DNA from: Sphyrna mokarran | Taxonomy: Eukaryota | Length of the DNA: 64,000 nt | Direction: 5' to 3' | NCBI GenBank assembly: GCA_024679065.1 | Contig: JAGIQG010000014.1 | Span: 75,144,001-75,208,000 of the forward strand | Position numbers and translations under genes: made by a program | Shown here: positions 6,634-51,535 of the stretch, piece after piece | How the letters are laid out: each line of letters starts with the position of its first letter | Position numbering within the stretch: the first letter of the stretch is position 1 | Notes under the pieces: generated by a model | Database searches by the model: none | Told to the model about the DNA's origin: nothing | The model's input: the letters and a program-made list of their open reading frames with translations, nothing else

Positions 6634-6723
6634 GCTTTAAGTTCAGTAGCTGCAATTATTGGTTAAGTCTATTCGTGTCGCTGTCTACCAATAAGGAACT
6701 GAGAGACTGGCAGTGATCTACCC
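6634..6723 (+). promoter_or_regulatory. Pcdh promoter conserved sequence element (CGCT box, putative CTCF site) with flanking inverted CCAAT boxes, gene 1
   Basis: GCTTTAAG 6634, TGCAATTATTGGTT 6651, GTGTCGCTGTCTACCAATAAG 6675-6695, GATC 6715. CGCT lies 260 bp upstream of the ATG, and the cassette recurs before all five genes. Confidence 0.85.
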
Positions 6724-6938
6724 TCCTCCTCCGGCAGAGAAACAACAGAAGAGAAGAGACAGATGGTGCCTGCCCTTTTGTTGGACGGACATGCTCAAAG
6801 AAGCTGCTCAGGTCAGGCCTTTTCAGTCCTCAGTTTAACGTTAGCATTTAGAAATATATTTTATTTATGTCACAGAAGAAAAAAATATAAATGGTTGGCC
6901 GATGTTTTGAAATTTTACGACAAATTTCAGTCACAGCA

Positions 6939-9332
6939 ATGGCGAATATACTCAGGAGCGGGGCGTGTTTCATTTTCCTGCTGTGTGTGGCCGACCTGGT
7001 TTCTGGACAAATTCGTTATGCGATTCCCGAGGAGCTGGAGCACGGGACCTTTGTGGGCAATATCGCTGAGGACTTAACACTCAAAGTCTGGGAATTACCG
7101 GCTCGCAAATTTCGGTTGGTCTCTGATGACAAGGCACAGTACATGGCAGTAAATCAAGAAAATGGGATTTTATATGTTAATGAAAGAATCGACCGTGAAC
7201 TAATCTGTAAACAAAGCGCTCCGTGTTCCCTTTCATTTCAAGTAGGCCTTGATAATCCTTTGGAAATTCATCATGTCGCTGTGGAAATACTGGACGTAAA
7301 TGACAATTCACCTAGATTTTCAAAGGACGAATTCTCTCTGCAAATTGATGAGTTAACAGCTCCAGGTGCGCGCTTCCCAGTCGAGCGAGCGCACGATCCA
7401 GATGTGGGTCCAAATGCAATCAGCACTTACCAAATCAGCCCAAACGAGCACTTCGGCATTAAAGTTCAGACAAGAACAGATGGAAGCAAAACTGCCGAGT
7501 TGTTATTAGAGAAGTCATTGGATCGTGAGCAACAGTCCAGCTTTCATATTGTACTGACCGCGATTGACGGCGGGATCCCGCACAGATCTGGCACCACACA
7601 GATTTTAATTATTGTAATAGATGGCAATGATAACGCACCCGTATTCGATCATGAAATCTATGAGGCAATAATCCCAGAAAATGCCCCTCAAGGTACCTTA
7701 GTAACAACAATCAAGGCTGTTGATTTAGATCAAGGCGTGAATGCGGAGGTAACGTATTCTTTCACAAGTCACGTGTCCGAAAGAATTTTCGAGCTGTTCA
7801 AATTGGACCCAATAACTGGAGAGATCAGAGTTCAGGCTGTATTGGATTTTGAAGAATCGAATGTTTACGAACTTGATGTGCAAGCCGTGGACAGCGCTCC
7901 ACCTATTATGACTGGACATGCCAAAGTAATGATCGATCTAATTGATATGAATGATAATATCCCTGAGATACAGGTGAGCTCAGTGTCCAACATCATTCCC
8001 GAAGACGCTGCACCAGGGTCGGTAATAGCTGCGATCAGTGTAACAGACTTAGATTCTGGAGCAAATGGTCAGGTGGAGTGTCAGGTTTCTGGAGATATTC
8101 CATTTAAACTCCAACAGTTTTTGACGAATAACTATAAATTGGTAACACGCGATACTCTTGATCGCGAAACGGCCCCGTTATACAACATATCTATTTCAGC
8201 CTGGGACAAAGGGTCCCCATCTCTTCATGCAAGCAAAATCATTTTGGTTTCGGTTTCAGATGTAAATGACAACGCACCTCGCTTTATAAAATCCTCATAT
8301 AACGTGTATCTGATGGAGAACAATACCCCTGGTGAGTCTATATTTGCTGTTACTGCTTTGGATCCAGATTTGGATCAGAATGGGGAGGTCATCTATTCAA
8401 TTGTGAACAATAAAATAGACGAGGAACCGATGTCAGCTTACGTTACAATTAATTCCAAAAATGGGAAACTTTACGCGATTCGTTCCTTTGATTATGAAAC
8501 ACTGAAATACTTTAATATCAAAATTCAAGCTGAGGATGCTGGATCTCCCCGTTTAAGCAGCACTGCCACCGTGGATATTATTATCTTGGACCAAAATGAC
8601 AATACTCCTGTTATTGTTTCACCTTTATCCTTCAACAGTTCAGCATCAGTGGAGATTAGCCCTCAGTCAGTGTATCCAGGTTACTTGATCACCAAGATAA
8701 TCGCGACTGACGCCGATTCCGGTCAGAATGCGAGGCTTTCCTACCAACTGTTGGGGGCCACTGATCCCAGTCTGTTCACCGTGGGGCCTCTGACTGGAGA
8801 AATAAGAGCAACTGGACGATTGAGAGACCAAGACATAATAATGGAACGATTGATCCTCAGTGTGAAGGATAATGGACAGCCAAGCCTTTCCAGTACAGTC
8901 GCCGTCACATTTTCCATTGTCCCCAATTTCACTGAAATATCTACTGAGCAAAATAACGTCCCGCGCCAGTCGGAATATTTCTCCGATTTAAATCGTTATT
9001 TGATCATCATTTTTGGATCGACTTCATTTTTGTTTCTCGTGACGATAATTTTTCTGATCGTCTTGAAATTTACACAAAAGAGAAATATTGCCGAAAACTA
9101 CAATTCTACAGCTTGTTCTCACAAAAGAAGTAATTCGAATAATGCTTTTAGTCAGAGACCTGCAACAAAGCCGCCTTTGAATTATAGCGGGACTTCTGAA
9201 ACGGAACGTTTTGGTTTCACTATCTGTTTATCACCAGAATCGTCGAAAAGCGATTTTCTGTTTCTGAAACCCTGCCATCCTACTTTGCCATTCAGTGAAG
9301 TGAATGTCCGTGATGCCAACGCGATGAACTAA
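6939..9332 (+). CDS. Clustered protocadherin, single large exon (gene 1; 797 aa, 6 EC + TM + short tail)
   Basis: Signal peptide then QIRYAIPEE, EC1 C-X5-C, repeated DRE/DxNDNxP/AxDxG motifs, TM LIIIFGSTSFLFLVTIIFLIVL, tail CLSPESSKSDFLFLKP. Start chosen from the GCAATGGCG context shared with paralogues; an in-frame ATG also exists at 6891. Confidence 0.95.
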   Translation: MANILRSGACFIFLLCVADLVSGQIRYAIPEELEHGTFVGNIAEDLTLKVWELPARKFRLVSDDKAQYMAVNQENGILYVNERIDRELICKQSAPCSLSFQVGLDNPLEIHHVAVEILDVNDNSPRFSKDEFSLQIDELTAPGARFPVERAHDPDVGPNAISTYQISPNEHFGIKVQTRTDGSKTAELLLEKSLDREQQSSFHIVLTAIDGGIPHRSGTTQILIIVIDGNDNAPVFDHEIYEAIIPENAPQGTLVTTIKAVDLDQGVNAEVTYSFTSHVSERIFELFKLDPITGEIRVQAVLDFEESNVYELDVQAVDSAPPIMTGHAKVMIDLIDMNDNIPEIQVSSVSNIIPEDAAPGSVIAAISVTDLDSGANGQVECQVSGDIPFKLQQFLTNNYKLVTRDTLDRETAPLYNISISAWDKGSPSLHASKIILVSVSDVNDNAPRFIKSSYNVYLMENNTPGESIFAVTALDPDLDQNGEVIYSIVNNKIDEEPMSAYVTINSKNGKLYAIRSFDYETLKYFNIKIQAEDAGSPRLSSTATVDIIILDQNDNTPVIVSPLSFNSSASVEISPQSVYPGYLITKIIATDADSGQNARLSYQLLGATDPSLFTVGPLTGEIRATGRLRDQDIIMERLILSVKDNGQPSLSSTVAVTFSIVPNFTEISTEQNNVPRQSEYFSDLNRYLIIIFGSTSFLFLVTIIFLIVLKFTQKRNIAENYNSTACSHKRSNSNNAFSQRPATKPPLNYSGTSETERFGFTICLSPESSKSDFLFLKPCHPTLPFSEVNVRDANAMN

Positions 9333-9659
9333 TGTAGAAAGCAACTCTTATGTCCGCAGGTAATTCATTTTAATGATGATTTATGTTTATTCAATTAATG
9401 TTGGTTTTGATATACTTGACCAAATGCTTCCACTGCTCGCAGAAGGCACGGCAGTTTAATTTCTTACTGCTCTTTGTGAGGAAGCCAGATCAGAAACACC
9501 AAGGTATATTATTAAGCCAGGCTAGACCCCAAAGTTTTCCTTATTTTGACTTAAATCTAAGGAAAGAATGTTTTACTCCAGGCATAATTCCACTGATAAA
9601 TTACGGATATTTTAACAAAGATAAGCTGAATTCATAATATAATTGGCGAATACATCCTG

Positions 9660-11800
9660 CCATTTTCTGTTCTTTTCCATCAGTTCACACATTGGAACAA
9701 TCATGCTGGTAAATTTGGCACGAATGTCCTTAGGAAGAACTCATGCTAGGAATCTCAACCTTATCATCTCATTGACAGCACTGGGAACTCGCCAATAGTT
9801 TTAGTTTTCATATTCCGCAGGGCCATCTCTCCAAGTGGAATTGGATGGCCTAGGAATATGGCTTGGGCTTTTGCAAATTCATCTTCAGTCAAGTTTACCA
9901 TAGAACCAGCCTCCTGTAATCAAACGAACAATTCTTTTAAATGTTCCAAATGACCCTTCCACGTTTGTTTGAAAACCATCAGATACTGCAGAGTTAATTA
10001 ATCCATAAATGAGCAATTTGGTTAATCTTTGGAGTGTCACTGGCATAGTCTTCATTCCAAATGGCATGATTTTAAATTGCTACGGAACATTTGGCATCAC
10101 ATATATCAAAATCTCCTTCACACTTCTGATAACAGCAGTTGCCAGTATCCTTCAAGTAAGTAAAGTTTAGCAATTCAATTGACTTGCCTCATCCTTTCAA
10201 TGCAGTCTTCCATTCGAGGAATAGGATACAAATCTGACTTTGTAAATGCATTGACATTTCTATAGTCCATGCACTATGCAACATTTAATTTTAGTAATAT
10301 CACTGTGGGAGAGGTCCAGTTATTGCAACTTACTTTAATGATATTGTTCTTACGCATAGTTCAACCACTTTTGAACCTGTGCCAACTTGGTAGGTTCAGC
10401 CTATGTGGATGTTGCTCAATGGGAACAGCATTTCCTACATCTACACCATGAACAATTACTTCAATCCTTCACAGTTAATTCCCAGATGCAGTTCTATGTG
10501 ATTATAATAACTCTTCAAGGTTATTTCAATTTTCTTCTCGAAAGTAACTCAGTAGTTTATCGCAAATACTGATTACTTCCTCATTGCCAAATCTAATTTA
10601 TAGAATGTCAAATTCATAATAATCTTGATCTGTCTCTTCACATCTAGTTGTAGCAATTAGCACATTCTCTTTCTGCTTTGCTTCTCTTTCAAAAGAACAT
10701 TTGCACACATTAACATGGCAGATAATGTGTGTGTCCTGTCCATCTGATGTCTTTTTCAAATAATTCATCTCGCTTAGTTTAAGAACATAAGGACATAAGA
10801 AATTGGAGCAGGAGTAGGCTATCTAGCCCTTCGAGCCTGCCCAGCCATTCAAGAAAATCATGGCTGATCTACAGTAAATCAGTTCCATTCTCCCACTTTC
10901 TCCTCATTACTCTTAATTCCCTTACCGATCAGAAATCTATCAATCTGTGACTTAAACATATTCACCGAGATAGCCTCGACCACTGGGCAGAGAATTCCAG
11001 AGATTCACCACTCTTTGAGTGAAGAAGCTCCTTCTCAACTCCGTTCTAAACTGCGTCCCCGCCCCCCCCCCCCCCCCCCCCCACACCCTTACTTTGAGTC
11101 TGTGCCCTCTAGTTCTATTTTCCTGTCTAAGCGGAAAGTCTACCTAACTAGCCCCTTCATTATTTTTGTAAGTCACTATAAGATCCCCTCTCAGCCTTCT
11201 AAACTGCAACGAGTATAGACCCAGTCTATTTAATCTCTTCTGATAAGCTAACCCTCATCTCCTGGTAAACTTTCTCTGTACTCCCTCCAAGGCCAATATA
11301 TCCTTACGCAAATAAGGAGACCAAAACTGCACACGGCATCCAAGTTGCGGCTTCACCAGTCCCTTATGCAGATGGAGGAAGACATCCTGCTTTTATATTC
11401 CATCCCCCTCGCGATAAAGAGCAACTTCTGCCCACTGGTTTTCATTTTTTTGAGAATATGTTACAGAGCAAATCTCAATACCTTTATTCAGGTAAAAATT
11501 AATTGTGGTAGCCTTGACTGACAATATTAATATTAACATCAATGAGGCAAAAATGTCCAGATACTGATGACAAAGCTATTGCAAATTTTGATTTAGTTTC
11601 TTAAATGTTAGGTGGCACATAAAGTTCAGAGGAAACGGGTTTCCTTACTCTAACAAAGTTAAAAGGTGAAGAACTGTGTTTATCATTATATGATCGGTTT
11701 ATTTTGTTTTTGGTAACACGTGAAATATCTAAACGCTCACCTTCTTAAATGTTGTCAGAGATACCATAGAAAGAAACGTTTGTATTTAATTCATTGTTTT
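9660..11800 (-). mobile_element. Decayed Gypsy-type LTR retrotransposon internal fragment (integrase end then RT), interrupted by CR1
   Basis: Minus strand reads MDYRNVNAFTKSDLYPIPRMEDCIE, GYWQ and MPFGMK..TLQRL (Ty3/Gypsy RT). Upstream on the same strand it reads LSEMNYLKKT..IICHVN (integrase C-terminus-like). The 11426-11800 portion is less certain. Confidence 0.7.
10781..11425 (-). mobile_element. CR1 LINE 3' end nested in the Gypsy relic
   Basis: Begins AAGAACATAAGGACATAAGAAATTGGAGCAGGAGTAGGC (reverse of a CR1 tail) and is clearly similar to 38506-39070. Confidence 0.8.
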
Positions 11801-12149
11801 CCCTCTCGAATTAACACTAACACAATTGGTTTTTAAAAGTTATAAAATATGATGCTGATTCCATTTGCGAGATCTTCATTTTTGAGAGAGCGTGCAAAAA
11901 GAGTGAATGAATTATGCACAATGACGCATGTTCAAAAATCAGTCTTAACACCTAAAATTCAATACTTATAATCATATGTAAGAATGTTACATAAAGCATC
12001 TAGGTGCGAAATTTTTCTGAACATGCCCTTCTTGCTGGGATGTAAAATCAAGAAGGTGCCATTGCCATAACTGTCTGCGTTTAAGAATCTGAGGAATCAA
12101 ATTTGGAAAGATCTGCTAAATTAACTCGTAGTGACAAGGGAAGTGAGAA

Positions 12150-14340: not shown

Positions 14341-14499
14341 CTTAAATGTATGATTTTCAGATTGACAACATGTATCAAGCTGCAGGGTTCAATGCTGGGG
14401 CCTTAACACTGCATCAAAATCTTTCACAGAATCCCATCTGCATCCCGTGTCAAAATGACTCTAGCCTTCTGTTGTTGTGTTCGCCGAGCTTGGCAATTG

Positions 14500-14548
14500 G
14501 CTTGCAGACGTTTCGTCACCAAACGAGGAAACATCGTCAGTGCTTAGC
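14500..14548 (-). ncRNA. Minimal type I hammerhead ribozyme motif (PLE-associated), minus-strand copy
   Basis: Exact reverse complement of the motif at 15698-15746. Confidence 0.7.
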
Positions 14549-19297: not shown

Positions 19298-19387
19298 GCT
19301 TTAAGAATAATTGCTGCAATTATTGGTTGAGTCTGTTCGTGTCGCTGTCTACCAATAAGAAGCGGATACGCTGCCAGGGATCTACCT
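19298..19387 (+). promoter_or_regulatory. Pcdh promoter cassette (CGCT/CTCF-type + inverted CCAAT boxes), gene 2
   Basis: GCTTTAAG 19298, TTATTGGT 19320, CGCT 19343, ACCAATAA 19351, GATC 19379. Confidence 0.85.
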
Positions 19388-19614
19388 CTTTTTCCGACCC
19401 AGGAAACAGATCAGAGGCGAAGACACAGAGGATGTTTGCGTTTATGCTGTGCGGTCATCTTTAGCAAAGCTCCTCAGGTCTAATTTTTGCCTTCCCCCGT
19501 TTTCTATTTGTATGCGATTTTTAAAAAATCAAATAGTGTTGTCGAGTAAGAGACAACTTAGCAGAATCGATTGGACGATTTACATTTGCAGAAAAAAACA
19601 TCCGCATGAGAACA

Positions 19615-22043
19615 ATGACCTCAATGAGCTGCGGTGTACCGTTCATTTTTCTGTTCTGTCTGTCGGACCTGGTTTCAGGACAAATTCGCTACTCGATTGC
19701 CGAGGAGCAGGAGCACGGGGCCTTTGTTGGGAACATCGCTGAGAATTTGAGATTAAATATTTGGGAATTATCGGCTCGTAAATTTCGCCTGGTCTCCGAA
19801 GAAAGGAAGCAATACATTGAGGTAAATCTGGAAAATGGGGTTTTATTTGTTAATGAACGGATCAACAGAGAACAGCGTTGTAGAGAAAGCTCTGCCTGTT
19901 CCCTTTCGTTGCAAGTTGTCTTCAATAAACCTTTGGAAATACATCCTGTTGAAGTGGAAATATTAGACGTAAATGATAATTCACCCAAATTTCTGAACAG
20001 CGAATTCTTCTTGCAGATCAGTGAATCAATTTCGGCAGGTGCGCGCTTCCCTGTCGACAGCGCGTACGACCCGGACATCGGCACAAATGCAATCAGAATT
20101 ACCAGATGAGTCCAAATGAACATTTTGGCATCAGAGTTCAGACACGAAATGATGGAAGCAAAAGTGCTGAATTGTTGTTAGAGAAAGCCTTGGACCGTGA
20201 ACAACAGTCAACCTTCAATCTTGTGCTGACGGCTGTTGGTGGCGGCGAACCCCCGAGGTCTGGCACAAGCCGGTTTTCAATCACTGTCCTGGACGCGAAA
20301 GATAACGCACCTATATTTGATCACGAAATACACAAAACCAGTATCGCAGAAAATTCCCGCAAAGGGACGTTGGTGACAACAATCCACGCTGCTGATACAG
20401 ATGAAGGTACCAATGCTGAACTGACCTATTCTTTCACCAGCCATGTTTCCCAGGATATTCGCGAATTGTTCAATTTAGACCCCAAAATTGGAGAAACTAC
20501 AGTCCAAGATATACTGGATTTTGAAAAAGCAAGTGTTTACGAACTTGATGTAGAGGCCGTGGATAACGCTCCGCCTGGTGTGGCTGGACGTGCAAAAGTG
20601 ATGGTTGGACTGATAGACACGAATTATAACATCCCCGAGATAGACGTCACTTTGGTGTCCAGCCCAGTGCAGGAAGATGCTCCTCCGGGGACTGTGATAG
20701 TTTTAGTCAGCGTTATGGATTCAGATTCTGGCAAATATGGGCACGTGCAATGTCATATTCCAACGCAACTTCCGTTCAAACTTCAAAAAATCTTGAAGAA
20801 CAGCTACAAGTTAATTCCCAATGGTATTTTGGATCGTGAAGTATCCCCGACATACAACATCTATATTTCAGCCTGAGATGGGGTATTTCCCCCTAATTCA
20901 ACAAATTTAACTCTTTTAGTTTCCGTTTCAGATATAAATGACAATGTGCCAAAGTTCACACAATCCTTATATAACATATATCAGATGGAGAACAACACTC
21001 CAGGTGCTTCTATATTCGCTGTTACTGCACCGGATTCAGATTTAGGCCGGAACAGTGAGATTCACTATTCAATTCTGGAGAGTCAGAATGAAGGGAGAGG
21101 CGGGACTGCTTACGTTTCCATCAATTCCAAACATGGGGACATTTACGCCCTGCGTTCCTTTAACTATGAACAGTTGAAACACTTCCAGATCAAAGTTCAA
21201 GCCCAGGATATGGGATCTTCTCCGCTGAGTAGTACTGCCATTGTCAATGTTATAATCCTGGATCAAAATGACAATACACCGGTTATTGTCTCACCTTTAA
21301 CCTGGAACAATTCAGCATCAGTGGAGATTGGGCAGCAGTCAGTATTGCACCCAGAATATTTGGTGACCAATATAATCGCGACTGATGCGGATTCCGGTCA
21401 GAATTCCAGGCTTTCCTATCAAGTGATGGAAACCAATGTTTCCAATCTGTTCACTGTGGGACTTCTCTCTGGGGAAATCAGAGCAACACAACGTTTAAGG
21501 GAGGAAAGTATCAGCACAGCAAAATTGGTCGTCATCGTGAAGGATAATGGACAGCCAAGCCTTTCCACCACGGTTACCGTCTCATTTACCGTCTTGACCA
21601 ATGTAACAGAAAATTCTTCTGAACAAGTTGGTGAACCTGGTGCATCGAAGTATTTTTCGCACCTTAATGGTTATTTAATCGTTATATTGGGATCAACACC
21701 GGTTTTATTTCTTGTAATAATCATTTTTCTTGTCATGCTGAAGATTAATCAAGGCAGAAATATCGCTGAAGATCACAACTGTGCGGTTTGTTGTTACACA
21801 AATCGAAATTTGAACGATGCCTTTAACCGGAGGTCTGCACCAAACGAACCATTCAACTATGTCGAGTCTGCTCAGACTGAAGGTTGTCACTATACCGTGT
21901 GTTTATCGCCAGAATCAGCGAAAAGTGATTTTCTGTTTTTAAAGCCCTTTAATCCTACCTTGCCTTTCGACGACTTGGGTGTCCGGGACACCAACACAAA
22001 AATATTGCTTGGTAACAATTTCGATGCAGGGACTGGTAAATAA
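19615..22043 (+). pseudogene. Clustered protocadherin pseudogene (gene 2)
   Basis: Full-length paralogue split into three ORFs by a 1-bp deletion at ~20097 and TGG>TGA at 20874-20876. Ca-binding motifs are decayed (INRE, TAVGGG, DAKDN, DTNYN, FNYEQ). Confidence 0.9.
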
Positions 22044-24614
22044 TTCACACTTGGGTAGACGTGTGTGCCATATTTTGAAATCTTGGGTAAGTCATTCTTT
22101 GCTATATACCACTAGGTCCTCAAATTTTAGTAGATTAAGACTGAAGTAGTCAAATTGCTTACTGTTGCTGTTATATTCTTGCCTTTCACTGATGCTACAT
22201 ATATCTGCCCATATCCTCACAATCCTAAGCAGTGCATGCTTAATTATACTATATTGAAGACTGACATAATTGTTGGATTGTGTAAATTATAGAAGTGCAA
22301 CCCCTTGCTGTTAATGTTATATCGCATATCTTGAGGTGGTCAATGAGACAAGAATATTTTTTTGGATTTTGGTTACATTGAACAGTAATGAATCGTAAAA
22401 CCAAATACGTGTCCCTGAAATAAATTCTCAGATGTTATCATTGTGTGGAGCCGGCATATTCGCTGCTTTCGTGAAATGTTACTTGTTTGTCCCTGGAAAA
22501 TTATGCAACAAGAGTATGTCAACAGTATATATTTCCTCAGTTTTCTTCCAGATTTTACATGAAAACAATGAATCTTGTTATCTCACATTAACTTCGTTAT
22601 ATAATGTGCACTTACGTAATGTGCAAGTACAGTCCTTTATTACCAAGTTCATGATCAATTTCTTGTTGAACGGAACTGTTGTATTTTCTTCCGTCTTCCT
22701 TTCGATTATAATAGCACTGCGCAAAACAAAAATAATTTCTCCCGATTTCTGTTTGAATACGTTTTCAATTACTTTAAAACCACTTATCGCGTCTTTCCCA
22801 GGAAACGGCTCGTTTCTTATTTTCTCTGCCAGTGCCCATCATAATTATGATCACTTCTTTCAAATCTCTACGCACGCTTTTCTACTCTAAGGAATCAAAT
22901 CCATGATGTCTACTCCGTGTACGTAGTTAGATTTGCTCTTTCCTGGTACCATTCTAGGAAATGTCGTTTGGGCAGCCTTCAAGATATTGACAGTGCCACA
23001 AAACATTTTTGCTCTCAATTGGACGCAGTACTATATATAATGTATATATATAGCTTTCTATACGTCACGTTGTAGTATGTTATTAACTTTAAATGGGAAA
23101 TAACAAAATTATACACAAATGGAATTTAGAATGACTCAGTTTACACTGTACCAGATAATTTTCCTGTACTGAAGAATGGCCTGAGTTCTATAGTTCACTC
23201 CCTAACACAAATAACAATTCCGGAAAATATTTCAAAAGGCAAAACTTGACGCACTTATACAACAGAAATCAGCGACGCTTGTGCTATTGACTACATAAGT
23301 AAACGCAATGGCAGTTGAACTAATCTACGGAAATATAATTGCAAGATGCATTTATACCACACATTCCAACTATGACCTAATGTTATCGCATTAATTGTTT
23401 GAATCACTCTAATCAAGTACACGTCTACCACCCAACTGAAATTGTTGCAGCCAATAAAGGAAATGACACCCTGAATAACAGTAACCCCGGTGCCTCGCCC
23501 CTATACGATCTCTACGATTGCATTTAAACTTTTCACATGAGGATTATTTTAGGATATTTTAGCATTTTTCCTGTTTCCTACTTAGCGTGACTGCCTACAT
23601 TTGGCCATACATTCAGCGCGTATGGTATGCATATTACTTTAGACATCAGGAAACGTGACTCACTTTCTTGTCCCACACCAAATTTTTACCCTTCCTCCAT
23701 TTCTCGGGTTCTGTAAGCTTGCTGCCTGATGACATTATCCGCAAAATTGGGGTCAGATTCCACATATTTTGCTGTTGACAGATCGCATTTTATTTTAATC
23801 ATTCACGACCAGCTATGCACTTTCACCCTGCATGAGCTGACCAAACTTTCAGCTAATCTATCAAAAGATCTAGCAGCCGCTTGGGACAAACTCTATACCA
23901 TTGCAATGGTTTCATTGTTTAATTATTGTTTTATGTGGAAACCAACTTTTTATCCTTCAACACCAGATGTCAGCCAGACCGCCGTTTGATAAATGCTACT
24001 TAGAACTATCTCCTGAACGTCACACACGTGAATGTTTCATTCATTGTTCCAGTGAATCCTTTATACTGCTTTTTTATCAGCTCTAAACTTCAATATTTGA
24101 GTTCTAGGCTGGCTGTCTGCTCAATGATCTTCGAATTTCAATTTGTTCAATACATTTTGCCTACATTTTTTTCCAATTCCAGGTCATCTATCGCATGTTG
24201 GTGAACTGCACTGATTTCTGTTTCCAAAATTACTTAACATTTTCGTTGTCACTCTTATGCCAAATGTTTTATCTCTTCCCTCTTTTCTGCATTTTCTGCC
24301 ACCCCATCATAGACAATGGGTCACTCTGTTCCTGGCCTTCCATTTCGGAAGTCTCCTATTGTCAATACTCTCTACTAGCCCCAACCATTTGTAGTCATGA
24401 ACCCACCATCAAGGCCAAATCATGCAAAATACCTTCATTATATCGTTCTATCTAATATCCTTCAATAACTTCAACAAAATCTATTTTATAGTGAAAATCT
24501 CGCAAGCATTGCAAAGGGCAAATTGGTTCAGCAGCTATTGTTTTTCAGTTAGCTCTTCTACGGTGATCTTTCGAATGTATCATGCTTAAACCGATTGACA
24601 GTGAGTCTGGCGGT

Positions 24615-32339: not shown

Positions 32340-32429
32340 GCTTTAAGAAAATTTGTTGCAGTTATTGGTTGGGACTGTTCGTGTCGCTGTCTACCAATAA
32401 GAAGCCGAGACTCTGCGAGAGATCGACCC
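32340..32429 (+). promoter_or_regulatory. Pcdh promoter cassette, gene 3
   Basis: GCTTTAAG 32340, TGCAG 32357, TTATTGGT 32362, CGCT 32385, ACCAATAA 32393, GATC 32421. Confidence 0.85.
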
Positions 32430-32651: not shown

Positions 32652-35045
32652 ATGGCGAACGTACTGATGATCCGGGCAGTCTTCATTTTCGTGCTGTGTG
32701 TGTCCGACCTGGTTTCGGAACAGCTTCGCTACTCGATTCCCGAGGAACTAGAACGTGGGACCTTTATTGGGAACATCGCTGAAAATATACGACTTAATGT
32801 TTGGGAATTACCGTCTCGCAAATTTCGGCTGATTTCAGATGACCCGAAACAATACATGGAGGTAAATCCAGAAAATGGCTTCTTATTTGTTAGTGAAAGA
32901 ATCGACAGAGAACAAATTTGTAAAAAAAGCTCTCCCTGTTCACTTTCTGTTCAAATCGCGCTCGACAACCCTTTGGAAATGTATCCCGTTTCAGTGGAGA
33001 TACAAGATGTAAATGATAATTCGCCCATCTTTCCGAAGAGGGAATTCCACTTGCAGATCAATGAATTAATTGCGCCAGGGGCGCGCTTCCCTCTCGAGAG
33101 TGCGCAGGATCCGGATGTGGGTACAAACGCAATCAACACTTACCAGGTCAGTCCAAACGAGAACTTCGCTATCAAAGTGCAAACAAGACGGGATGGAAGT
33201 AAAAATGCTGAGCTTTTACTGATGAAGCCTTTGGACCGTGAAAAACAATCGATGTTTACTCTCCAACTGACGGCCATAGACGGTGGGATTCCGCACAGGT
33301 CTGGCACAGCTCAGCTTATCATTAATGTAATGGACGGAAATGATAACGCGCCTATTTTCGATCAGGAAACCTACAGGGCGACTGTCGTGGAAAATGTCGC
33401 CAATGGTACCTTAGTGATAAAGATTAATGCTGCGGATATGGATGAAGGTACAAATGCTGAAGTAACATATTCCTTCACCAATCATGTTTCCCAAAATATC
33501 CGCAAGTTGTTCCAATTGGACCCTATTACTGGGGAGATCAGGGTTCGGGGAGTCGTGGATTTTGAAGAAGCGAATGTTTATGAACTTGACGTACAAGCAG
33601 TGGAGAATGCTCCACCAGGATTGGCAGCCCATGCAAATGTTGTGGTCGATGTCATTGACACTAACGATAATTTTCCTGAGTTGCACGTGACTGTAGTTGC
33701 CAGTGCTGTGCGGGAGGATGCTCCAGTAGGAACTACTATAGCTTTGATCAGTGTAACTGATGCTGATTCTGATGAATATGGAGAAGTTCACTGTCAGATT
33801 CCAGGGAGTATTCCGTTCAAGATTGAAAACCCTTTACGGAATAGCTATAAGTTGGTTACCAATGGTATTCTGGACCATGAACTGATCCCAATATACAACA
33901 TCTCCATTTCTGCCTGGGACGGAGGCTTGCCGCCTCTTTCAACAAGTAAACTCATCTTGGTTTCTATAACTGATATCAATGACAACGCTCCAAAATTTAC
34001 ACAATCCTCATATAACGTGTACCTGATGGAGAATAATAAACCTGGTGCTTCTATATTTGCTGTTAATGCATATGATGCTGATTTGAATCAAAATGGAGAA
34101 ATCTCCTATTCCATTCTCGACAATGCAAAGCAAGATATGTCTTCCTCTGCTTACGTCACGATTAACTCCAAAAATGGGAACATTTACGCACTGCACTCCT
34201 TTGATTATGAACAAGTGAAACACTTCCAATTCAATGTTGAAGCTCATGATGCTGGATTTCCTCCACTAAATGGCACTGCTATTGTTGATGTTATTATCTT
34301 AGACCAAAATGACAATTCGCCGGTTATCCTCTCACCTCTAACATGGAACAGCTCAGCATTAGTGGAGATAATGCCTCAGACAACTTATCCAGGTTACTTA
34401 ATCACCAAGGTGATTGCGACAGATGAGGATACTGGTCAGAATGCGAAGCTTTCCTTCCAGTTGTTGGAGGCCACTGATCCTAACCTGTTCACCATTGGTA
34501 TACTGTCTGGGGAAATCAGAACAACACGAAGTATTAAAGACCAAGAAATCATTACAAAAAATGCGGTCCTCTGTGTGAAGGACAATGGACAACCAAGCCT
34601 CTCCAGTACGGCCACAATCTTCTTTACAATAATGTCCAATGTGACTGAGAACTCTTTTGAACGAATGGATGAACCCAGACGCTTGGAATATTTTTCAGAT
34701 CTAAATAGTTATCTGATCATCATTTTAGGATCCACTTCCTTTTTGTTCCTGGTAACGATTATTGGATTGGTCATCCTGAAGTATAGACAAGACAGAAATA
34801 TTGCTGAAGACTATACCTCTACAGGTCGTTGCTATAGTCGGAGGAATTCCAATGATGGTTTTAATCGGGGGCAAGCTGCAAGTGAACCTTTAAATTATAG
34901 CGGGACAGTTCAAACTGAAGGTTATCGTTACACTGTGTGTTTATCACCTGAATCGTCGAAGAGTGATTTTCTCTTTTTAAAGCCCTGTCATCCTACGTTG
35001 CCTTTCAATGATGTGAATGCTCATGACATCAATGCAAGAAATTAA
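32652..35045 (+). CDS. Clustered protocadherin, single large exon (gene 3; 797 aa)
   Basis: GCAATGGCG start, signal peptide, QLRYSIPEE, six EC repeats, TM, tail YTVCLSPESSKSDFLFLKP. Confidence 0.95.
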   Translation: MANVLMIRAVFIFVLCVSDLVSEQLRYSIPEELERGTFIGNIAENIRLNVWELPSRKFRLISDDPKQYMEVNPENGFLFVSERIDREQICKKSSPCSLSVQIALDNPLEMYPVSVEIQDVNDNSPIFPKREFHLQINELIAPGARFPLESAQDPDVGTNAINTYQVSPNENFAIKVQTRRDGSKNAELLLMKPLDREKQSMFTLQLTAIDGGIPHRSGTAQLIINVMDGNDNAPIFDQETYRATVVENVANGTLVIKINAADMDEGTNAEVTYSFTNHVSQNIRKLFQLDPITGEIRVRGVVDFEEANVYELDVQAVENAPPGLAAHANVVVDVIDTNDNFPELHVTVVASAVREDAPVGTTIALISVTDADSDEYGEVHCQIPGSIPFKIENPLRNSYKLVTNGILDHELIPIYNISISAWDGGLPPLSTSKLILVSITDINDNAPKFTQSSYNVYLMENNKPGASIFAVNAYDADLNQNGEISYSILDNAKQDMSSSAYVTINSKNGNIYALHSFDYEQVKHFQFNVEAHDAGFPPLNGTAIVDVIILDQNDNSPVILSPLTWNSSALVEIMPQTTYPGYLITKVIATDEDTGQNAKLSFQLLEATDPNLFTIGILSGEIRTTRSIKDQEIITKNAVLCVKDNGQPSLSSTATIFFTIMSNVTENSFERMDEPRRLEYFSDLNSYLIIILGSTSFLFLVTIIGLVILKYRQDRNIAEDYTSTGRCYSRRNSNDGFNRGQAASEPLNYSGTVQTEGYRYTVCLSPESSKSDFLFLKPCHPTLPFNDVNAHDINARN

Positions 35046-37184: not shown

Positions 37185-40100
37185 CAGAAACATGGAAATT
37201 GGAAGTAGGAGTAGATCATTCAGCCTTTCGAATCTGCTCCACCATTCATTTTGATCATGAGTAACCATCAAATATAGTCTTGGCTCTCTCTTTCCTCCGT
37301 TGATCCCTTTAGCCTCAGGACTATATCGACTTTCTTCTTGAAATCAGATAACGTTTTTGTCTCAACTACATTCTATGGTAGTGCATTCCATGGATTCACC
37401 ACTCTCTACGTGAAGGAGTTTCTCCTCACTGCAATTCCAAAAGTGTCAATTCTTATCTTCAAACTACGACCCCTAGTTCTGGATTCCACCAGCATTGAGA
37501 ACATTCTTTCAATATCTACCCTGTCTAATCTTATTAAAATTTTACAATTTTCTGAGATCCTCTCTCACTCTTTTAAACTCCAGTAAAGCTAATCATAACT
37601 GACTTAGTCTGTCCTCATATTATAGACGTGGCAATCCTGAAATCAGCCTGGTAAGTTTTTGCTGACCTCTTTCTATAGCAAGGGCAGCCTTCCTCAGAAA
37701 ATAATACCACCACTGTACACAAAACTCCAGGAGTGCCCTGACCAACACTCTATACAATTGCCGCAAAACATCCCTATTCCTAGAACAAAAACCTCTCGCC
37801 ATGAGGGCCAACATACAATTCAACTTTTTTACTGCCTGGTGTACGTTGACACTTACTTTCAGTAACTGATGTACGAGGACTCCAAGATCTCGTTGAGTAT
37901 CTGCCTCTCTCAGTTGTCACCATTCAAATAATAATCTGCTTCAAGTGGTTAACCTCATATTTATCCACATTGTACTGCATTTGCCATGCAGATGCCCACA
38001 AACACAGCCTGCTCAAAACACGCTGATATATCTCTGCATCCTTCTTACAGCTCACCCCCCTACTCAACTTTGGACCACCTGCAAATCTGGAGAAAATACA
38101 TTCAGTTCCCTCTTTCAAATTATTAATATATATAATGTGATTCATTGAAATCGTAGCACAGATTCCGTCAGAACTTCACTAGTCACTGACTGCCAATCAG
38201 AAAAAAAAACATTTATTCCAACTCTTTGCTAACCAGTTTTCTATTCAAGTCTACACATTACCATCAATCCCATGTGTTTTAACTTTATATTGTTATCTGT
38301 TATGTGCGACATTGTCAGATGTGCGACATCTGAAAGTCAAAATAAACCACAGCCACAGGTTTTCCTCGGTCAACACTACTAGTTATATCCTAAAACTCCA
38401 AAAATTCGTCAAGCATGATTTCCCTTTTGTAAATTCATTCTGACTTTGTCTGAATATTCCAATGTCTTCTAAATATTGAGTTACAAAATCTTGATAATAG
38501 ACTTTAGAATATAAGAAATAGGAGCAGGAGTCGGCTATCTAGCCCTTTGAGTCTGCCCCGTCATTCAGAAAGATCATGGCTGATCTGAAGTGGATCAGTT
38601 TCACTTTCCCACCTGCTCCCCATTACCCTTAGTCTTTTTGTCTATCAGAAATCTATCTACCCGTGACTTAAACATATTCAACGTGGTAGCCTCCACCACG
38701 TCAATGACAGAGAATTCCAGAGATTCACTACTCTTTGAATGAAGAAGTTCCTCCTCAACTCTGTTCTAAACTGCAGCCCCGCCCCTTATTTTGAGGCTGT
38801 GCCCACTGGTTTCCTTTCTAAGCGGAAAGAATCTCTCTACCTTTACCCTATCTAGCCTCTTCATTATTTTGCAAGTTTTTATGAGATCCCCCCTCAGCCT
38901 CTAAACTCCAGCGGGTACAGGCCCAGTCTACTTAATCTCTCCTCACAAGCTAACCCCCTTATCTCCAGTATCAGCCTGATAAACATTCTCTGTACTCCCT
39001 CCAAGGCCAATATATAAGGGGACAAAAACTGCACAGCACTCCAGTTGCAGCCTCACCAGTGCCTTGCAGAGCGAAGCTTCCCCGGTACCGACACCAAGCT
39101 CACTGGTCTATAACTCCCTGTTTTCTCTCCATCTCCGTTTTTGAATAGTCTACATATATTAGCTTATCTCCAATCTGTAGGAACTGTTCCAAAATTCAAT
39201 CAACTTTGGAAAATAACCACCAATGGATCTATTATTTCCAGGGTCACTTTCTCAAATGCTCTCCGATAAGGTTTATCAGGACCAGGAGATTTATCCGCCT
39301 TCAATCTCATCAATCTCACCCCAAACATTTCTCTATTAATGCTGAGTTCCTTCAGCTCCTAAAGACGTGTTTTTCTCTGCACTTCTAGTACATTATTCGT
39401 ATCTTCCTTTGTGAAAACTGATGGGATGTACAAATTTAATTCCTCAACCATTTCTTTATTTCGCCTTATGAATTTCGTGTTTCTGAATGTAAGGGGCTTA
39501 CTTTCATTTTCTGTCAATCTTTTTTTTCTCTTTACACATCAAAAGAAATTTTTACAGTCGGTTTTTATGTACAAGCTAGCTTACTTTCATACTCCTTTTT
39601 TCTTTTGTTAATCAATGCCTTGGTCCTCCATTGTTGAATTTTAAACTGTTCCTAATCCTATTGTTTTCTCTTGCCATTATGTATACTTCTTCCTTGGCTC
39701 TGATACTGTCTCTAATATCCCTTGTAAGTCATGGTGTGGCCACAATTCCCCATCACTCTTGTACCAAACAAGATTAAACAACTTCTGAAGTTCAGTTATT
39801 TGTTCTTGGAATGCCCGCCATTGCCTGTCCACTGACATGTCATTCAGTAATGTTTCCCAGTCCTTCATGGACAATTCGTTCCTCATACCATTATAGTTAT
39901 CGTTATTGAGATTCAGGACTCTGATATTAGAATGAACTTCATCACTATCCACCTTGACAAAGAATTCTACTATAATATGGTCACTCATCCCCAAGAGTTC
40001 TCTCACAACTACATTGCCAACCAACTCTTTCTCATTGCACAATACCTAGTCCAAGTTGGTTCATCAATGTACTGCTCCAGAAAGCCATGTCTTATGCGGT

Positions 40101-42949: not shown

Positions 42950-43320
42950 ATGCAAATATTTCCCTCCCTTAAATAAGAAGACCAAAAAATTACTCAGTGT
43001 CTAGATGTAGTCTAAGCTATGTTCCTGCACAATTGTAGCATAAACTTCCCTGCTTTCCTTCCCCATCCGTCTTGCAATAAGAAGCAACGTTCCTTTTGAC
43101 TTCCTAATTATTTGCTGTACCTGAACGCTAACTTTTTTTCCATGATTCATGTATCAGAGAGCACAAGTGCCTCGCTACCTCAGCATTCCGGTCGCTCCCC
43201 AACCTCCGTCTTTCCAGTGAGAACAAACAAAGTTTCTCCAACCTTTCCTCGTCGCTAATGCCTTCCATGCCATGCACCATCCTGGTAAATCTTTTTTGTA
43301 CTCTGTGGATGTGGACAACC
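42950..43320 (-). mobile_element. CR1 LINE fragments
   Basis: HRVQKRFTRMVHGMEGISDEERLEKLCLFSLERRRL. Confidence 0.75.
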
Positions 43321-45897
43321 AATGCGGATAACCAAATATTTTTCCACATGATGCACCATCTGTCAAATTGTTCTCTGCTTACATCCTCTCTCTTATCGTT
43401 TCAAAACTGTTCAAAACGGACTGTATCCTGCCGCGAGATAAGGGACTCAATGCAGGATTCCCGATTCTGCAAATAAAGGATACTGTGCGTCTCCTGATTA
43501 TTGAATCCCATACAAAAGAGACAAAATATCACTCAACTCCTGCTGCTTCTCTTCATCCACCTTTGCAATATGTCACCCCCACTAAGTTGCGGTGCCCAGA
43601 ATTAAACACAAAACCAAGTTCAGATCTAACCAGTATTTTGTAGAAAATTAGCAATCGTCCTTGCTTTTATACTCCCCGTCCTAATAATAAAGTCAATGGA
43701 CCATTACAAATGTATTTCTCAACTGGCCGTTCCATCTTCAACGACTTTTACACATGTACTACCTGCTGTCTAAGTTCCTGCATTTTTTTTAAATGAAACA
43801 ATTATTTCATTCTCCAAATCTTATCCTGCTTACCAAACCATAACTCTGCAGAAAGGAAAACCGGGCTAACCTAATGGATGGGTCATTTGAGCTACACTTT
43901 CCGATTCCCCTATTCTGTGACTTGCGATATCCACGCTGAACCAATAAGTTCAAACATGACAGCGCACTGACTCTTCCAGAGTGGCGCATGGCGTCATATT
44001 ATTTAGTATTATAAAGTACTATGTAATTCAATACAGCTGAGCAAGTTTGCTGCATTGAAATTATAAACAGTAATAACATAACTGATTAGCAACCCTTATT
44101 CTGTATCTGAATATTTCGCTTCCAACAGCTCTTATTCTAGCTTGGAAGTTCAATTTCTTATAGTGCAACTGTTTGAAAAGAAAAAAAAAATCAACTTGAA
44201 AAGATAAAACTGTCCTAAATTATAAAATGTGGTCAAGACGCAGTTTATTCCTGTTGAGAATAATTGGCTCTGTATAGTCCGGAGATAAACTGACTGACAA
44301 TAGTTTTACATATTTTTTAAGTAAGGTACAACATCAATCACCAATCGAGAAGAATAAGATGTGAAGCGCACGAATCTGAAATTAAGTCATCAATAGAACG
44401 TACAATTCTGTCTGCATGATGCAATTATGCAATGGGCAATGATTGATAGTCTGCATGCATTTGTAAGTAATGGGAGTGTCGTTCTATATTAGAAATGTTC
44501 TGACATTCATAGAAAAATAGTTTGGCATTACACTTCAAGTTAATATTATTATTCACAAATACTATAAAGAGAACTACAAAAAAATCAATGTATGCTTTCT
44601 TTGTTGCTGTTTTCATGATGCGCGATGATGCGCGATGACTAAATTGTGCAGTGCTTGATCTAGATGTTTCTTTGTTAAGTAAAAACGGTCAAATGCCACC
44701 TTCTTATTAAGGGATAATTCTGTCTTACCGAGCGAAGTATCAGCCCAAATACAATAAAAGACAACATGGAATTGCTCGTTATTCTAATATGAGTCTGATA
44801 GTTGCAGCAGTAAAACAATGTTTCATTTGAATTTTGAGGATAATGAAAATGGCTAAGTTGAATAACCCAGTGTTTTTTTGAACATATTTTGTTAGAATTG
44901 TAAAATCTTACTCTTCTACGTGTTGTTATTGAATCCAAGATATTCCATTTCAAATTTTCATTCAAAACGATTGTGCACCACTTTTATTTATACCGATAAG
45001 GCAGAGTCTGAAGGACATTTAACGACAAACACAGAACATGGTGGAAAATGTTCAGCATTTGTGGAGGTAGAACCGAAGGGAATTTTCATGCTGGTGACAT
45101 TTCATTGGGGAAAAAAAAGCTCACATTTTAATTGTTAACAGAGTGTCATGAGTTGAAAAGTAATTGAAAAATCTACCGAATGCATCATTTCGGTGGATAG
45201 TTTATTATTTTTTTCATCCTTGTGGATTTAAAGTAAGTACAAGTGGACACGTATTTCGTTCCAACTAGAACGGACGTTTATAAAGAGTACCAGCTATCCA
45301 AACGGACTCGCTAAAGATAAGCAATGTGGAAGTTTACGTCAGCAAGCAAACACGCGATTGTCTCTCTCAAGGTACAATATTGTGCAAAGCGGCAAAGGTT
45401 CTCACGTGATGCTTGTTTTTGAATATTTTTACCATTTTATGAATGACTTGAAAGCACCGGGAAAGTGTTACACGTTTATAAAGCCTACCCAGAATGTAAA
45501 ATTCAAACGGTTGTGCAAAGAAGTATTTTCGCGCGATTAAAAAATGTAGAAAAAAGAGTATCATGCATAACATGTTTATTCTAAAAAAAGCATGAGAATA
45601 CAGTGTAAACAATAATTATTTTTTAACATCACCATTTCGCAATGCAAATTATTGATTCTAAACACTGTTCAATTTATTCATGTCTTACACAGATCAGCAA
45701 GAATGCGGCTCACACGAAGTTTGGGAATGAATCATTGCCGATGGCTGCATCACAGATTTATCGAAGGAACCACCCGGTTTCACTTACACGTCACAAGTCG
45801 GCTTTAAAAAATACAATTTTAAATGACCTAATATTATTATATGAGCTCAAGTATTTTAATTGCACACTTCTAAATCCAAATACATGGAAGCGGTGTA

Positions 45898-45987
45898 GCT
45901 TTAAGGGCAGTTGTTGCAGTTATTGGTTGGGACACTCTGTGTCGCTGTCTACCAATAAGGAGCTGAAACGCTGGTCGCGATCTACCC
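45898..45987 (+). promoter_or_regulatory. Pcdh promoter cassette, gene 4
   Basis: GCTTTAAG 45898, TTATTGGT 45920, CGCT 45943, ACCAATAA 45951, GATC 45979. Confidence 0.85.
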
Positions 45988-46181
45988 CCGCCTCTTACAG
46001 TAATGTTGAACAGCTTGGAAGGGTGAGAGACAGACTGTTCCTGCGTTCATGCTGAGCAGACATGTTCAGAAGAAAAGACGCAGAAGGAATTTGTCTCTCT
46101 TGTTTAAGTGTTAACAATCAGAAGTAAGGTCGAATTTTCCTTTTTGATAACTGTTTATTATTAGGAATTCCAGCAAGAGCA

Positions 46182-48587: not shown

Positions 48588-50879
48588 TGTATATTAACCT
48601 TTGGGCTGGAGATTATTGGTTGCAGTTTAGTCTTGTCGTGAGGTAATCGATGACGCAATACAAATACAATTGACTTATGCGCTTGAACACTGTCCTAGAT
48701 ATGTGTATATAATAGTAATATTTGATTATTTATGCTAATTCTCGAACGCCTTCAACAGAGCTTGTCGTGTCAATGTTCACGTAAATAACTAGCTACATAT
48801 TTGTGTAATTCCTGCTTTGCTGAAACACATGAACAGTTGGAAAGAACATTTTCTCCAATATCTATAATCATAGCAGACGACTGTTCGAAATCTTTCTGTT
48901 TAAAATCTCATTAAAGTTTTCATTTCAGGATCCTAATTTGGGAAGAAGTTTGCAATTATCAATGATTAGAGGTCGCTAAATAAGGTCATTTTATTCCTAG
49001 ATCACTTACATTGTTTTGTATGTAAAAAAACGGAAGCTAAAACTTCATTAAACGGAACATGCCTTTTGTTTTGCTACGGCGAATACGACATTTTTGTCAT
49101 CTTGTCAACTCAGTGCTTTAAACGTAGGCGCAACATAGATTTTATGAACATATCAGTTTGTAAATTCAACGAACTATGTTTAAAATCAGAAATAATATAT
49201 TTGTTCGAGACTTCATGGACCTATAAATGTATTTCCAGGGGTGTTGGAAGAAATGCGTGTAAATATGTTTCAAATTCACGACACCTTTGGAAGGGAACTT
49301 ACAGCATCCAAACTTGACAACAGTGGAACTTCCTTTCGCCAGAGCTTCGCTGTTATTTACTCAAATGTAGAGAAAAAAAAGAGAAGATGGTGATTAAACA
49401 GAATTTCAATTACAAAAGTCTGATTAATTAGAACATGTTGCAGCTTGAGTCCAGAATCTATGTCGACAGTGAACTCAGACAATTGAGCTAAATCACGAGT
49501 TACGGAGTCCTATTTCTGATCATAGCTATTAATTATTGTTAGTTCAGATTCAAACTTTGGATCTGGCGTTTTGTTTTTGAAGGACTTTGGAATCATGTTG
49601 CATTCATTAATAAATCCGACCCCCAATAAATCTGATTCAAATAAATCTGACTTACTTGCGACACTAATAGTATTTTGTATATGATCCAGATAATGACAAC
49701 ATTGAAAAAAATCTTCATCTGTGATGCTGAAAGCATGATATCGAGCATTTAAAGTGAGATAAAAGAAAGTGCACGTCCGATGAACGACCACAATTATAGC
49801 AGTTTGACATCAAGAACTTATTTGACAAAGAAGACTGAACAATTGATGCACGTTTCGATAATGAAAGGATGCGCAACATTGTGGAGATTCACACTGCTTT
49901 CAATCAATAATTGTACATGATTAGCATCACATACTTGGCACATATGTTAGCATGAATATTTTTTTAATAGTGCAATTTGAAAAGAAAATGGCATAGAACA
50001 TTCGAAGAAAGTTTTTTCATCAACACAAGTGCAGTTGTCAAGCAATCAATTATTAGCTTGGTGTACGGACGATCCTTTCAAAAATGTGGAATTTAAAATT
50101 ATTTTTCATTGCGTTTAGTCTTATTTATATGACTTTGTAGCAAGTAGGCCCATCTAACAATATGAGCAGGAAAATATAGTCTGCCCTTTTGAAATCTAAT
50201 GTTTTCATGCATAATGTACCACCATTCTTCCCTCAGACCGTCCTCCATGCAATACCGTGGGAGAAGAAAATCATCGAGTAAGATAAGAAATTTCTCGGCT
50301 TTTTCGAGGACAATAAATCTCCAAATCTACCAGATACGTTCAGGAGCTCACAGAAAATATGAGGCACATTTACTTTCGCATTGTTCTATATCTAACTATG
50401 CTGCAGAATCCTACATTCATTGACTTATCCTTGTTGCGTTGACGGATTTTATTCTGAACAGCAGCAGTATGTGTGTTGAAGCTCATGCTATGATGAATTT
50501 TATGCAAAGATTTAAGAAGATAGAATGGCATGATGAGCACGTCTATGACAGCAGTTAAAATATAGATATAGTTTTATCTATCTATATAATGTTAATTTCG
50601 CTGCTCTCTTTTTCAATGATGGAAACGTTAGAGGTAATTGAAGGTAAACATCTCATGTAGTATTTGCGAAAAAATATTTACGAATGAACGATTACGAAGG
50701 TCACAATCCGAATACAAATTATGGAAACTAACATACTGATGGTAAATGAATCCAAAGTTAATTGAGAATGCATAACGTGAGGACATTTGACTGAAAGTAC
50801 ATTGATCTGTCTACTGAACAATAGTACTCTCCAAGTATTGCTCATCAAAAGAGGACAATAGGAAATATCAAGCGCAGGA

Positions 50880-51230
50880 ACAGATACACTGTGAGCACAC
50901 CTGAACAGTACCAACAACTTGCATTGACATAGCGCCTTTCGACATAGTCCTACATCCTGAATAAAGAGTGTTATCAAACTGAATCTCAAACTGGAGTCAC
51001 ATAAGGAGAGATGACTAACATCTTTATTTCTCACGTCCCAAAACGTAGGTCCTCAGAATCGTCATCAAACAGGAGACAAATTCATGCAGCCGGAGAGGTT
51101 TTGAGAGGACATTCCGAAATTTAGCATCATGATCTCACGGCCGCCAAGGGCAGAGAGACTAAACCCGGATTCTTAAGTGACCAGCATTGTAGAAGAGCAG
51201 AGATACCAGACGAAGATAATTAGTCTAAAC
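50880..51230 (-). mobile_element. Old L2-like LINE 3' remnant
   Basis: GGAGAGGTTTTGAGAGGACATTCCGAAATTTAG...CACGGCCGCCAAGGG resembles the reverse of an L2 ORF2 end; very degenerate. Confidence 0.4.
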
Positions 51231-51442
51231 TGTAAGATAACGGAAATGCTACCGTTCAAGTATTTACCGAAGTATGTGCTGCTGTGAAATTTGATTTAAA
51301 AGACTGCTCGCTTTATTCAGACATTATACATCGTGCACATTAAAAAATAACCAATATTATTAATGCTGTACATTTCAATATACGACTTGCGCACTACTAA
51401 ACATATTGGATCTCTGGGTGAAAATATTTTTGAAGCAGTACT

Positions 51443-51535
51443 GCTTTAAGAACTGTTGTTGCAGTTATTGGTTAGGACACATTGTGTCGCTGTCTACCAA
51501 TAAGAAGCTGAGGTGTTGCTCGCGATCTGGACCCT
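51443..51535 (+). promoter_or_regulatory. Pcdh promoter cassette, gene 5
   Basis: GCTTTAAG 51443, TTATTGGT 51465, CGCT 51488, ACCAATAA 51496, GATC 51524. Confidence 0.85.

Follow-up and report, generated by a model that had tools for sequence, protein, structure and literature searches.

The 64-kb window analysed here, that is, the whole 64,000-nucleotide stretch at positions 75,144,001 to 75,208,000 of contig JAGIQG010000014.1 from the shark Sphyrna mokarran, contains five clustered protocadherin (Pcdh) exons, one of them a pseudogene. Each is a single large exon encoding the domains cadherin, Cadherin_2 and Cadherin_C_2, and each is preceded by a copy of the same 85-bp promoter cassette, in which a predicted CTCF site is interlocked with two inverted CCAAT boxes. 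The results below concern these five paralogous promoters of one genome. The exons are the following.

6939-9332, + strand: clustered protocadherin variable exon g1, 797 amino acids from the in-register ATG
19606-22043, + strand: protocadherin pseudogene g2, with a 1-bp deletion near 20097 and an in-frame stop at 20874
32652-35045, + strand: clustered protocadherin variable exon g3, 797 amino acids
46182-48587, + strand: clustered protocadherin variable exon g4, 801 amino acids
51759-54161, + strand: clustered protocadherin variable exon g5, 800 amino acids

The cassettes, with the predicted CTCF footprint and the CCAAT boxes in each, are located as follows.

6634-6718, + strand: cassette copy 1 (85 bp); predicted CTCF footprint 6650-6688, CGCT box 6679-6682; left inverted CCAAT box 6658-6662, right CCAAT box 6688-6692
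19298-19382, + strand: cassette copy 2, intact, ahead of the broken gene; predicted CTCF footprint 19314-19352; CCAAT boxes 19322-19326 (-) and 19352-19356 (+)
32340-32424, + strand: cassette copy 3; predicted CTCF footprint 32356-32394; CCAAT boxes 32364-32368 (-) and 32394-32398 (+)
45898-45982, + strand: cassette copy 4; predicted CTCF footprint 45914-45952; CCAAT boxes 45922-45926 (-) and 45952-45956 (+)
51443-51527, + strand: cassette copy 5; predicted CTCF footprint 51459-51497; CCAAT boxes 51467-51471 (-) and 51497-51501 (+)

The five copies align gap-free over 85 bp, with GCTTTAAG at +0, TGCAR at +17 (fifth base A in two copies and G in three), TTATTGGT at +22, an invariant 21-mer at +41 and GATC at +81. 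These offsets are the same in 5/5 copies with zero indels, exactly as the original prediction, made from the sequence of this stretch, had described. Each cassette starts 284-316 bp ahead of the ATG, one per exon at 5/5 exons, and all five run forward on the + strand of the genes, with none on the - strand. On the + strand of the window, GCTTTAAG and the 21-mer are present at these five sites only, and the 21-mer is absent from the - strand. A profile scan of the window found no sixth copy (the five score 120.6-130.1, the next best placement -22.9), and tblastn found no sixth Pcdh exon in it. The cassette had been assigned to all five Pcdh promoters of the stretch, which is correct in that each copy stands before a Pcdh exon, with the reservation that the gene behind 19298 is broken. 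In the ungapped five-copy alignment, 57 of the 85 cassette columns are invariant, compared with 1/100 at -150 to -51, 3/50 at -50 to -1 and 1/48 at +93 to +140 in the flanks. The perfect 8-bp inverted repeat of the original description, with ATTGG and CCAAT 30 bp apart, is likewise found in 5/5 copies, the distance being measured centre to centre. ATTGG-N25-CCAAT has five matches in the window versus 0.15 expected, a number reached by 0/100 shuffles, and a perfect 8-bp inverted repeat lying entirely within invariant columns arose in 3/5000 letter shuffles.

The conservation of the cassette stands out from that of the genes behind it. Compared with one another, the four intact genes are 57-66% identical in amino acids and 41-54% identical at four-fold synonymous sites, with 29/127 shared four-fold columns invariant. 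Within the cassette, each of the 10 pairwise comparisons gives 98-100% identity in the motif columns, and spacer identity is 45-74%; for the intact genes, the share of invariant spacer columns (11/38) is not higher than that of synonymous columns (p=0.24). The motif columns were chosen from the data themselves, and what is informative is therefore how long the invariant runs are and how neutral the spacers look; a run of 21 invariant columns is expected about 1e-11 times. A tree was built from the four intact proteins and 75 of the 120 best matches (named proteins of cartilaginous fishes; matches that were fused, partial or unnamed, or that came from bony vertebrates, were left out), using a quick IQ-TREE run with SH-aLRT support only and a midpoint root. 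Each of the four intact genes falls in a separate cross-species clade, and the g1/g3 and g4/g5 clades (support 100) include rays, so that the cassette would have been kept since before the shark/ray split, if that rooting is right. Because motif identity greatly exceeds spacer and synonymous identity and the paralogs are old, the conservation points to selection rather than recent duplication. A merely historical similarity, left by recent duplication or by short-tract gene conversion between promoters, could draw on the gene conversion reported in Pcdh clusters including that of the elephant shark (PMC4978886) and on the one pair of copies whose spacer identity rises to 74%. It is nevertheless very improbable in view of the low four-fold identity, spacers no more invariant than synonymous sites, identity that switches block by block inside 85 bp, and paralogs older than several shark lineages. 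The original prediction had also favoured selection over duplication or conversion, and flanks as similar as the motifs, which would speak for copying, were looked for among the five copies and are absent.

The host genes look like members of the chondrichthyan Pcdh-epsilon subcluster, here in a galeomorph shark, because the best full-length matches of g4 are shark proteins (Scyliorhinus, 77% identity; Heterodontus, 75%) and the named matches from the elephant shark Callorhinchus among the best 120 are epsilon8, epsilon9 and epsilon18 (56-58%); the tree contained no mu, nu or delta proteins. An exact protein look-up of the five exon products returned 0/5 identical entries. The broken gene g2 keeps 3/5 DxNDN calcium-binding motifs, compared with 5/5 in the intact genes, and its C-terminus is extended. 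Its private amino-acid changes (48/336, 14.3%) are only slightly above those of the intact genes (9.4-13.8%), and g2 is therefore a young pseudogene, lost recently. The cassette of g2 is still perfect, which was considered as proof of a gene-independent role and dropped as uninformative, since a gene that broke so recently would say little about it.

Mammalian Pcdh promoters carry a conserved sequence element (CSE) containing a CGCT box that is bound by CTCF (PMC7811963, PMC4978886). A gene-specific sequence-specific element (SSE) adjoins the CSE upstream, both are required, and a 5-bp linker abolishes binding (PMC3333863). Mouse and frog CSEs are located ~200 bp before the ATG (PMC4978886), a distance similar to the 284-316 bp of the shark cassettes, and for the Pcdh cluster of the elephant shark a CGCT element had been described earlier (PMC2926608, citing Yu 2008). 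Full CTCF sites are composed of a 10-bp upstream motif, a 5-bp linker, a triplet and a 15-bp core (PMC12885311), and a two-part CTCF motif is common to lamprey, chicken and human (PMC5504073). The cassette contains a predicted full-length site of this type, forward, at +16 to +54 (39 bp), with the upstream motif at +16 to +25, the linker of zinc finger (ZF) 8 at +26 to +30, the core at +34 to +48 and the ZF2/ZF1 triplets at +49 to +54. The CGCT box with its CpG is invariant at +45 to +48 in 5/5 copies. Over 56 placements, the best fit of the upstream motif is the one with exactly the canonical gap of 8 bp (35/50; next best 26/50), with 7/10 matches in every copy; a match of this quality occurs at 278/63,990 window positions. 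The 28-bp offset from TGCA to the CGCT-equivalent position and this best fit uphold the CSE/CTCF identity and upstream-module spacing that had been proposed earlier. In the core, the 3' half (+40 to +48) has 8/9 invariant columns and the 5' half (+34 to +39) 1/6; the variability of this left half, also noted originally, is the SSE arrangement already known. The degenerate CTCF core pattern was scored by plain consensus counting, and the predicted CTCF assignment rests on CSE homology and geometry, not on a strong motif score. On these grounds the core of the cassette is very probably a CSE/CTCF site. A second, exonic CTCF site about 700 bp downstream, as in the Pcdh-alpha combination of a CSE and an exonic CTCF-binding site (eCBS), was also looked for: the best cores in the first 1.2 kb reach 10-11/15 under the same weak consensus counting, and no position is common to the five exons.

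Pcdh CSEs (~38-bp promoter CTCF-binding sites, pCBS) resemble the shark cassette in occurring once per variable exon, forward, a few hundred bp before the ATG and with a CGCT box, as well as in the shared 3' half of the core, the gene-variable 5' half and the spacing constraint (PMC3333863, PMC7811963, PMC4978886, PMC13395409). They differ in that conservation among the shark paralogs covers 85 gap-free bp rather than ~22 bp, and in that the shark upstream-motif/linker region is invariant, unlike the gene-specific mammalian SSE. CTCF sites with the upstream (U/M2) motif, such as the IL3 insulator, share with the cassette the succession of motif, 5-bp linker, triplet and 15-bp core and the 28-bp offset (PMC12885311). 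In those sites the linker is described as non-specific, whereas the shark linker is invariant and contributes to an inverted CCAAT; the shark core is degenerate in its ZF7/ZF6 half.

CTCF leaves part of the cassette over. In crystal structures, ZF8 serves as a spacer across the minor groove, no base-specific hydrogen bonds are formed by ZF2, and the triplet recognised by ZF1 is GAG (PMC10484683), whereas in the cassette the linker (5/5 columns), the ZF2-ZF1 triplets (6/6, with TAC as the ZF1 triplet) and +55 to +61 (7/7) are all invariant. Twenty invariant columns (+24 to +30 and +49 to +61) are found where CTCF is reported to be unspecific or to prefer other bases, 7 of them beyond the footprint, and the invariant columns that CTCF should not need spell the two CCAAT boxes. 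The left box overlaps three bases of the linker and the last two of the upstream motif, at which the motif deviates from the CTCF consensus; the right box starts on the last ZF1 base. The two boxes thus face outward and overlap both ends of the predicted site, and the earlier picture of a CTCF element clamped between two CCAAT boxes applies to the core but not to the full upstream-plus-core footprint, inside which the left box lies. All 10 boxes read ACCAATAA, with A following CCAAT, and the right boxes also have T at -2. Predicted CTCF specificity does not explain the invariance of either box, and a second sequence-specific factor on the boxes is therefore likely. That CTCF acts alone, possibly with RFX5 or other recruited co-factors, and that the CCAAT words are a by-product of its own sequence needs would agree with the overlap of both boxes with the 39-bp footprint and with the modulation of CTCF by RFX5 at human Pcdh clusters (PMC13478331); the 20 unneeded invariant columns, including those outside the footprint, make this explanation improbable. 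The inverted repeat could instead act as a hairpin or cruciform, and its arms do pair, fully or partly, in the predicted fold of 4/5 copies. This is hardly credible, however, as the z-scores range from +0.37 to -1.87, 10 to 125 of 200 shuffles fold equally well, and the invariant arms offer no compensatory changes. A structured RNA was accordingly rejected, the fold being no better than that of shuffles and the window having no Rfam match.

NF-Y is the main CCAAT factor, and the cassette offers it two perfect CCAAT pentamers near a promoter, 30 bp apart, in 5/5 copies. NF-Y recognises CCAAT from the minor groove, with contacts over 25-28 bp, and leaves the adjacent major grooves open; two boxes have to be spaced by at least 19 bp, and it is positioned 60-100 bp ahead of start sites (PMC4889920). 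Double-CCAAT spacings peak at 19, 24-28, 35-37 and 43 bp genome-wide and at 26-30 bp in cell-cycle promoters (PMC4889920). In its fixed-spacing pair flanking the site of another factor just upstream of a promoter, the cassette resembles the double-CCAAT NF-Y modules of the FOS/Sp1/Sp2/RFX5/IRF3/PBX3 platform and of cell-cycle promoters (PMC4889920). It differs from them in its 30-bp spacing compared with 24-28/35-37, in holding a CTCF-type site rather than a GC or E box between the boxes, in its atypical flanks and in the putative status of NF-Y. With moderate confidence, NF-Y is predicted to occupy at least one box. The boxes might instead be read, still around a CTCF-type CSE, by a CUT/CUX CCAAT-displacement protein (CDP) or a HOX13/CDX-type homeodomain, candidates suggested by the motif preferences of CUX/CDP and HOX13/CDX. 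The common 8-mer ACCAATAA with its following A and the rarity of the inverted repeat under shuffling would fit such a factor, and CDP peaks are locally CCAAT-enriched without NF-Y (PMC4889920). The promoter-proximal position and paired layout suit NF-Y, and this alternative is a serious one but rather unlikely.

Taken together, the cassette is best read as the shark form of the Pcdh CSE, extended into a composite promoter, to which we give a probability of about 0.55. Several observations weigh against this reading. The five promoters of one genome are a small sample, and the invariant GCTTTAAG (+0) and GATC (+81) are left over by the CTCF and CCAAT model. The CTCF core matches at 8-10/15 positions and the ZF7 CCA triplet is absent in 5/5 copies; by consensus counting over 255,840 placements, 4/5 sites rank no lower than 31st and the fifth no lower than 120th, and 27 other window placements score equally. 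NF-Y prefers the flank pattern RRCCAATSR, which 7/182 CCAATs in the window fit but 0/10 boxes do, and strict conservation of ACCAATAA in all ten exceeds what NF-Y needs. The earlier proposal of two NF-Y sites overlapping or abutting the CTCF footprint is accordingly retained for the overlap, with NF-Y as the candidate binder. The 30-bp spacing falls between the genome-wide double-CCAAT peaks, yet within the cell-cycle range of 26-30 bp. In addition, one mammalian study found CpG methylation to be without effect on the CSE complex (PMC3333863), in contrast to the account given in a review (PMC7811963).

If the composite-promoter reading is right, CTCF would, by analogy with mammals, bind when the CpG of the CGCT box is unmethylated and anchor cohesin loops that connect the promoter with an enhancer lying downstream. 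A CCAAT-binding factor, most likely NF-Y, would occupy the boxes, hold the promoter open and set the start site ~60-100 bp downstream, at about +115 to +155, where a floating 30-mer described below is found. Judging from published footprints, left-box NF-Y and full-length CTCF would probably be alternating states, because NF-Y there would clash with ZF8-ZF11 over the minor groove that both use, and the right box may coexist with core-bound CTCF. Since the sites overlap, no indel would be tolerated and the spacing would be rigid. The boxes may then standardise the strength or readiness of any promoter rather than the choice among promoters, because boxes identical in every paralog cannot pick one promoter over another.

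A stronger version, in which competition between NF-Y and CTCF on the cassette decides stochastic promoter use in each neuron, is doubtful. The left box does lie within the ZF8-ZF11 footprint, and the NF-Y/CTCF idea has a genome-wide precedent, since CTCF, RAD21 and SMC3 peaks show local CCAAT enrichment and a significantly low overlap with NF-Y, for which mutual exclusion was suggested, and the same paper cites NF-Y/CTCF overlap in neuronally differentiated mouse embryonic stem (mES) cells (PMC4889920). On the other side, boxes identical in 5/5 promoters hold no identity information, and the known choice mechanisms are methylation, loop extrusion and enhancer contact (PMC7811963). A role of the boxes in stochastic choice itself is for these reasons unlikely, and the competitive or cooperative switch for promoter choice put forward originally is left with its overlapping footprints but not with the power to discriminate promoters by invariant boxes alone. 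It is equally speculative that a CCAAT hard-wired into the ZF8 linker toggles each promoter between a CTCF loop-anchoring state and an NF-Y-opened transcribing state for stochastic choice, in an arrangement that may go back to the ancestor of jawed vertebrates and may persist in part, unnoticed, in mammals. The duplicated CCAAT of gamma-globin provides a parallel, where NF-Y and BCL11A compete at direct-repeat boxes in a developmental switch. The likeness is that of NF-Y and a zinc-finger protein of the C2H2 type with overlapping footprints at a promoter with twin CCAAT boxes, in a cluster competing for a distal enhancer; the shark boxes differ in being inverted, the zinc-finger protein would be CTCF, and competition is only inferred.

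Two further motifs accompany the cassettes at variable spacing.

45859-45874, + strand: reference copy of the floating upstream 16-mer, whose counterparts start at 6594, 19247, 32283 and 51386, at offsets of -39 to -57
46025-46054, + strand: reference copy of the floating downstream 30-mer, whose counterparts start at 6754, 19420, 32460 and 51578, at offsets of +120 to +135

At width 16 the upstream motif was matched by 1/300 intergenic draws and 0/300 shuffles, and at width 12 it was marginal (15/300 in both controls). Three of its copies contain TGCRCAC, which we take to resemble a metal-response element. The downstream 30-mer, matched by 0/200 intergenic draws, is a candidate transcription-start or 5' untranslated region (UTR) module. 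At +0 to +1200 of each cassette, where GC is only 41-47%, the CpG observed/expected ratio is mostly 0.8-1.2, compared with 0.65 for the window, and the promoters with the first kilobase of exon thus have a weak CpG-island-like signature. No NRSE/REST (neuron-restrictive silencer element) site with fewer than three mismatches to the fugu pattern is present in the window.

Within the exons, g1 has an additional in-frame ATG 48 nt upstream of the paralog-shared ATG, by which its open reading frame (ORF) is extendable to 6891 (6891-6938). Splice-donor-like AG/GTAA sequences are located at 9360, 35078 and 48643, which is 27, 32 and 55 nt past the g1, g3 and g4 stops, and they are 3 of the 9 AGGTAA[GT] on the + strand of the window; g2 has GGTAAG at 22087, and g5 has no donor-like site within 200 nt. 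Past the end of translation, splicing may join the g1, g3 and g4 exons to a non-coding exon lying downstream. The limit for nonsense-mediated decay is 50-55 nt, and the stop-to-donor distances of these three genes are near or under it. Dispersed repeat copies 80-95% identical are found at 10785-11301 and 38501-39015 (also 37377-37441), with strong negative GC skew nearby, and are probably transposon remnants.

The CSE/CTCF core and the CGCT element of the elephant shark were already known, and what the cassette would add is the interlocked inverted CCAAT pair. Some mammalian beta/gamma promoters have a CCAAT-like tail directly 3' of the CGCT box, and the right box may therefore not be shark-specific; it may already show in the Yu 2008 logo. 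Paired inverted CCAAT boxes are unmentioned in the parts of the Pcdh CSE literature examined. No paper linking CCAAT or NF-Y to Pcdh promoters was found, which is weak evidence, as it was judged from titles and abstract openings and logos in figures were not covered, and no literature on CTCF ChIP-seq at shark or cartilaginous-fish protocadherins was found. An insertion test with 5/10-bp linkers has already been done on a mammalian Pcdh promoter (PMC3333863).

Promoter choice among neuronal protocadherins is explained mostly by CTCF, cohesin and methylation, and the activator at the chosen promoter is less clear. Should the boxes be ordinary NF-Y activator sites, the cassette would extend the CSE of cartilaginous fishes only modestly. 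The old paralogs of this shark provide a clean phylogenetic footprint that names the exact bases CTCF should not need, overlapping its own footprint, and a second factor, together with its possible exclusion of CTCF ZF8-11, may thereby become testable.

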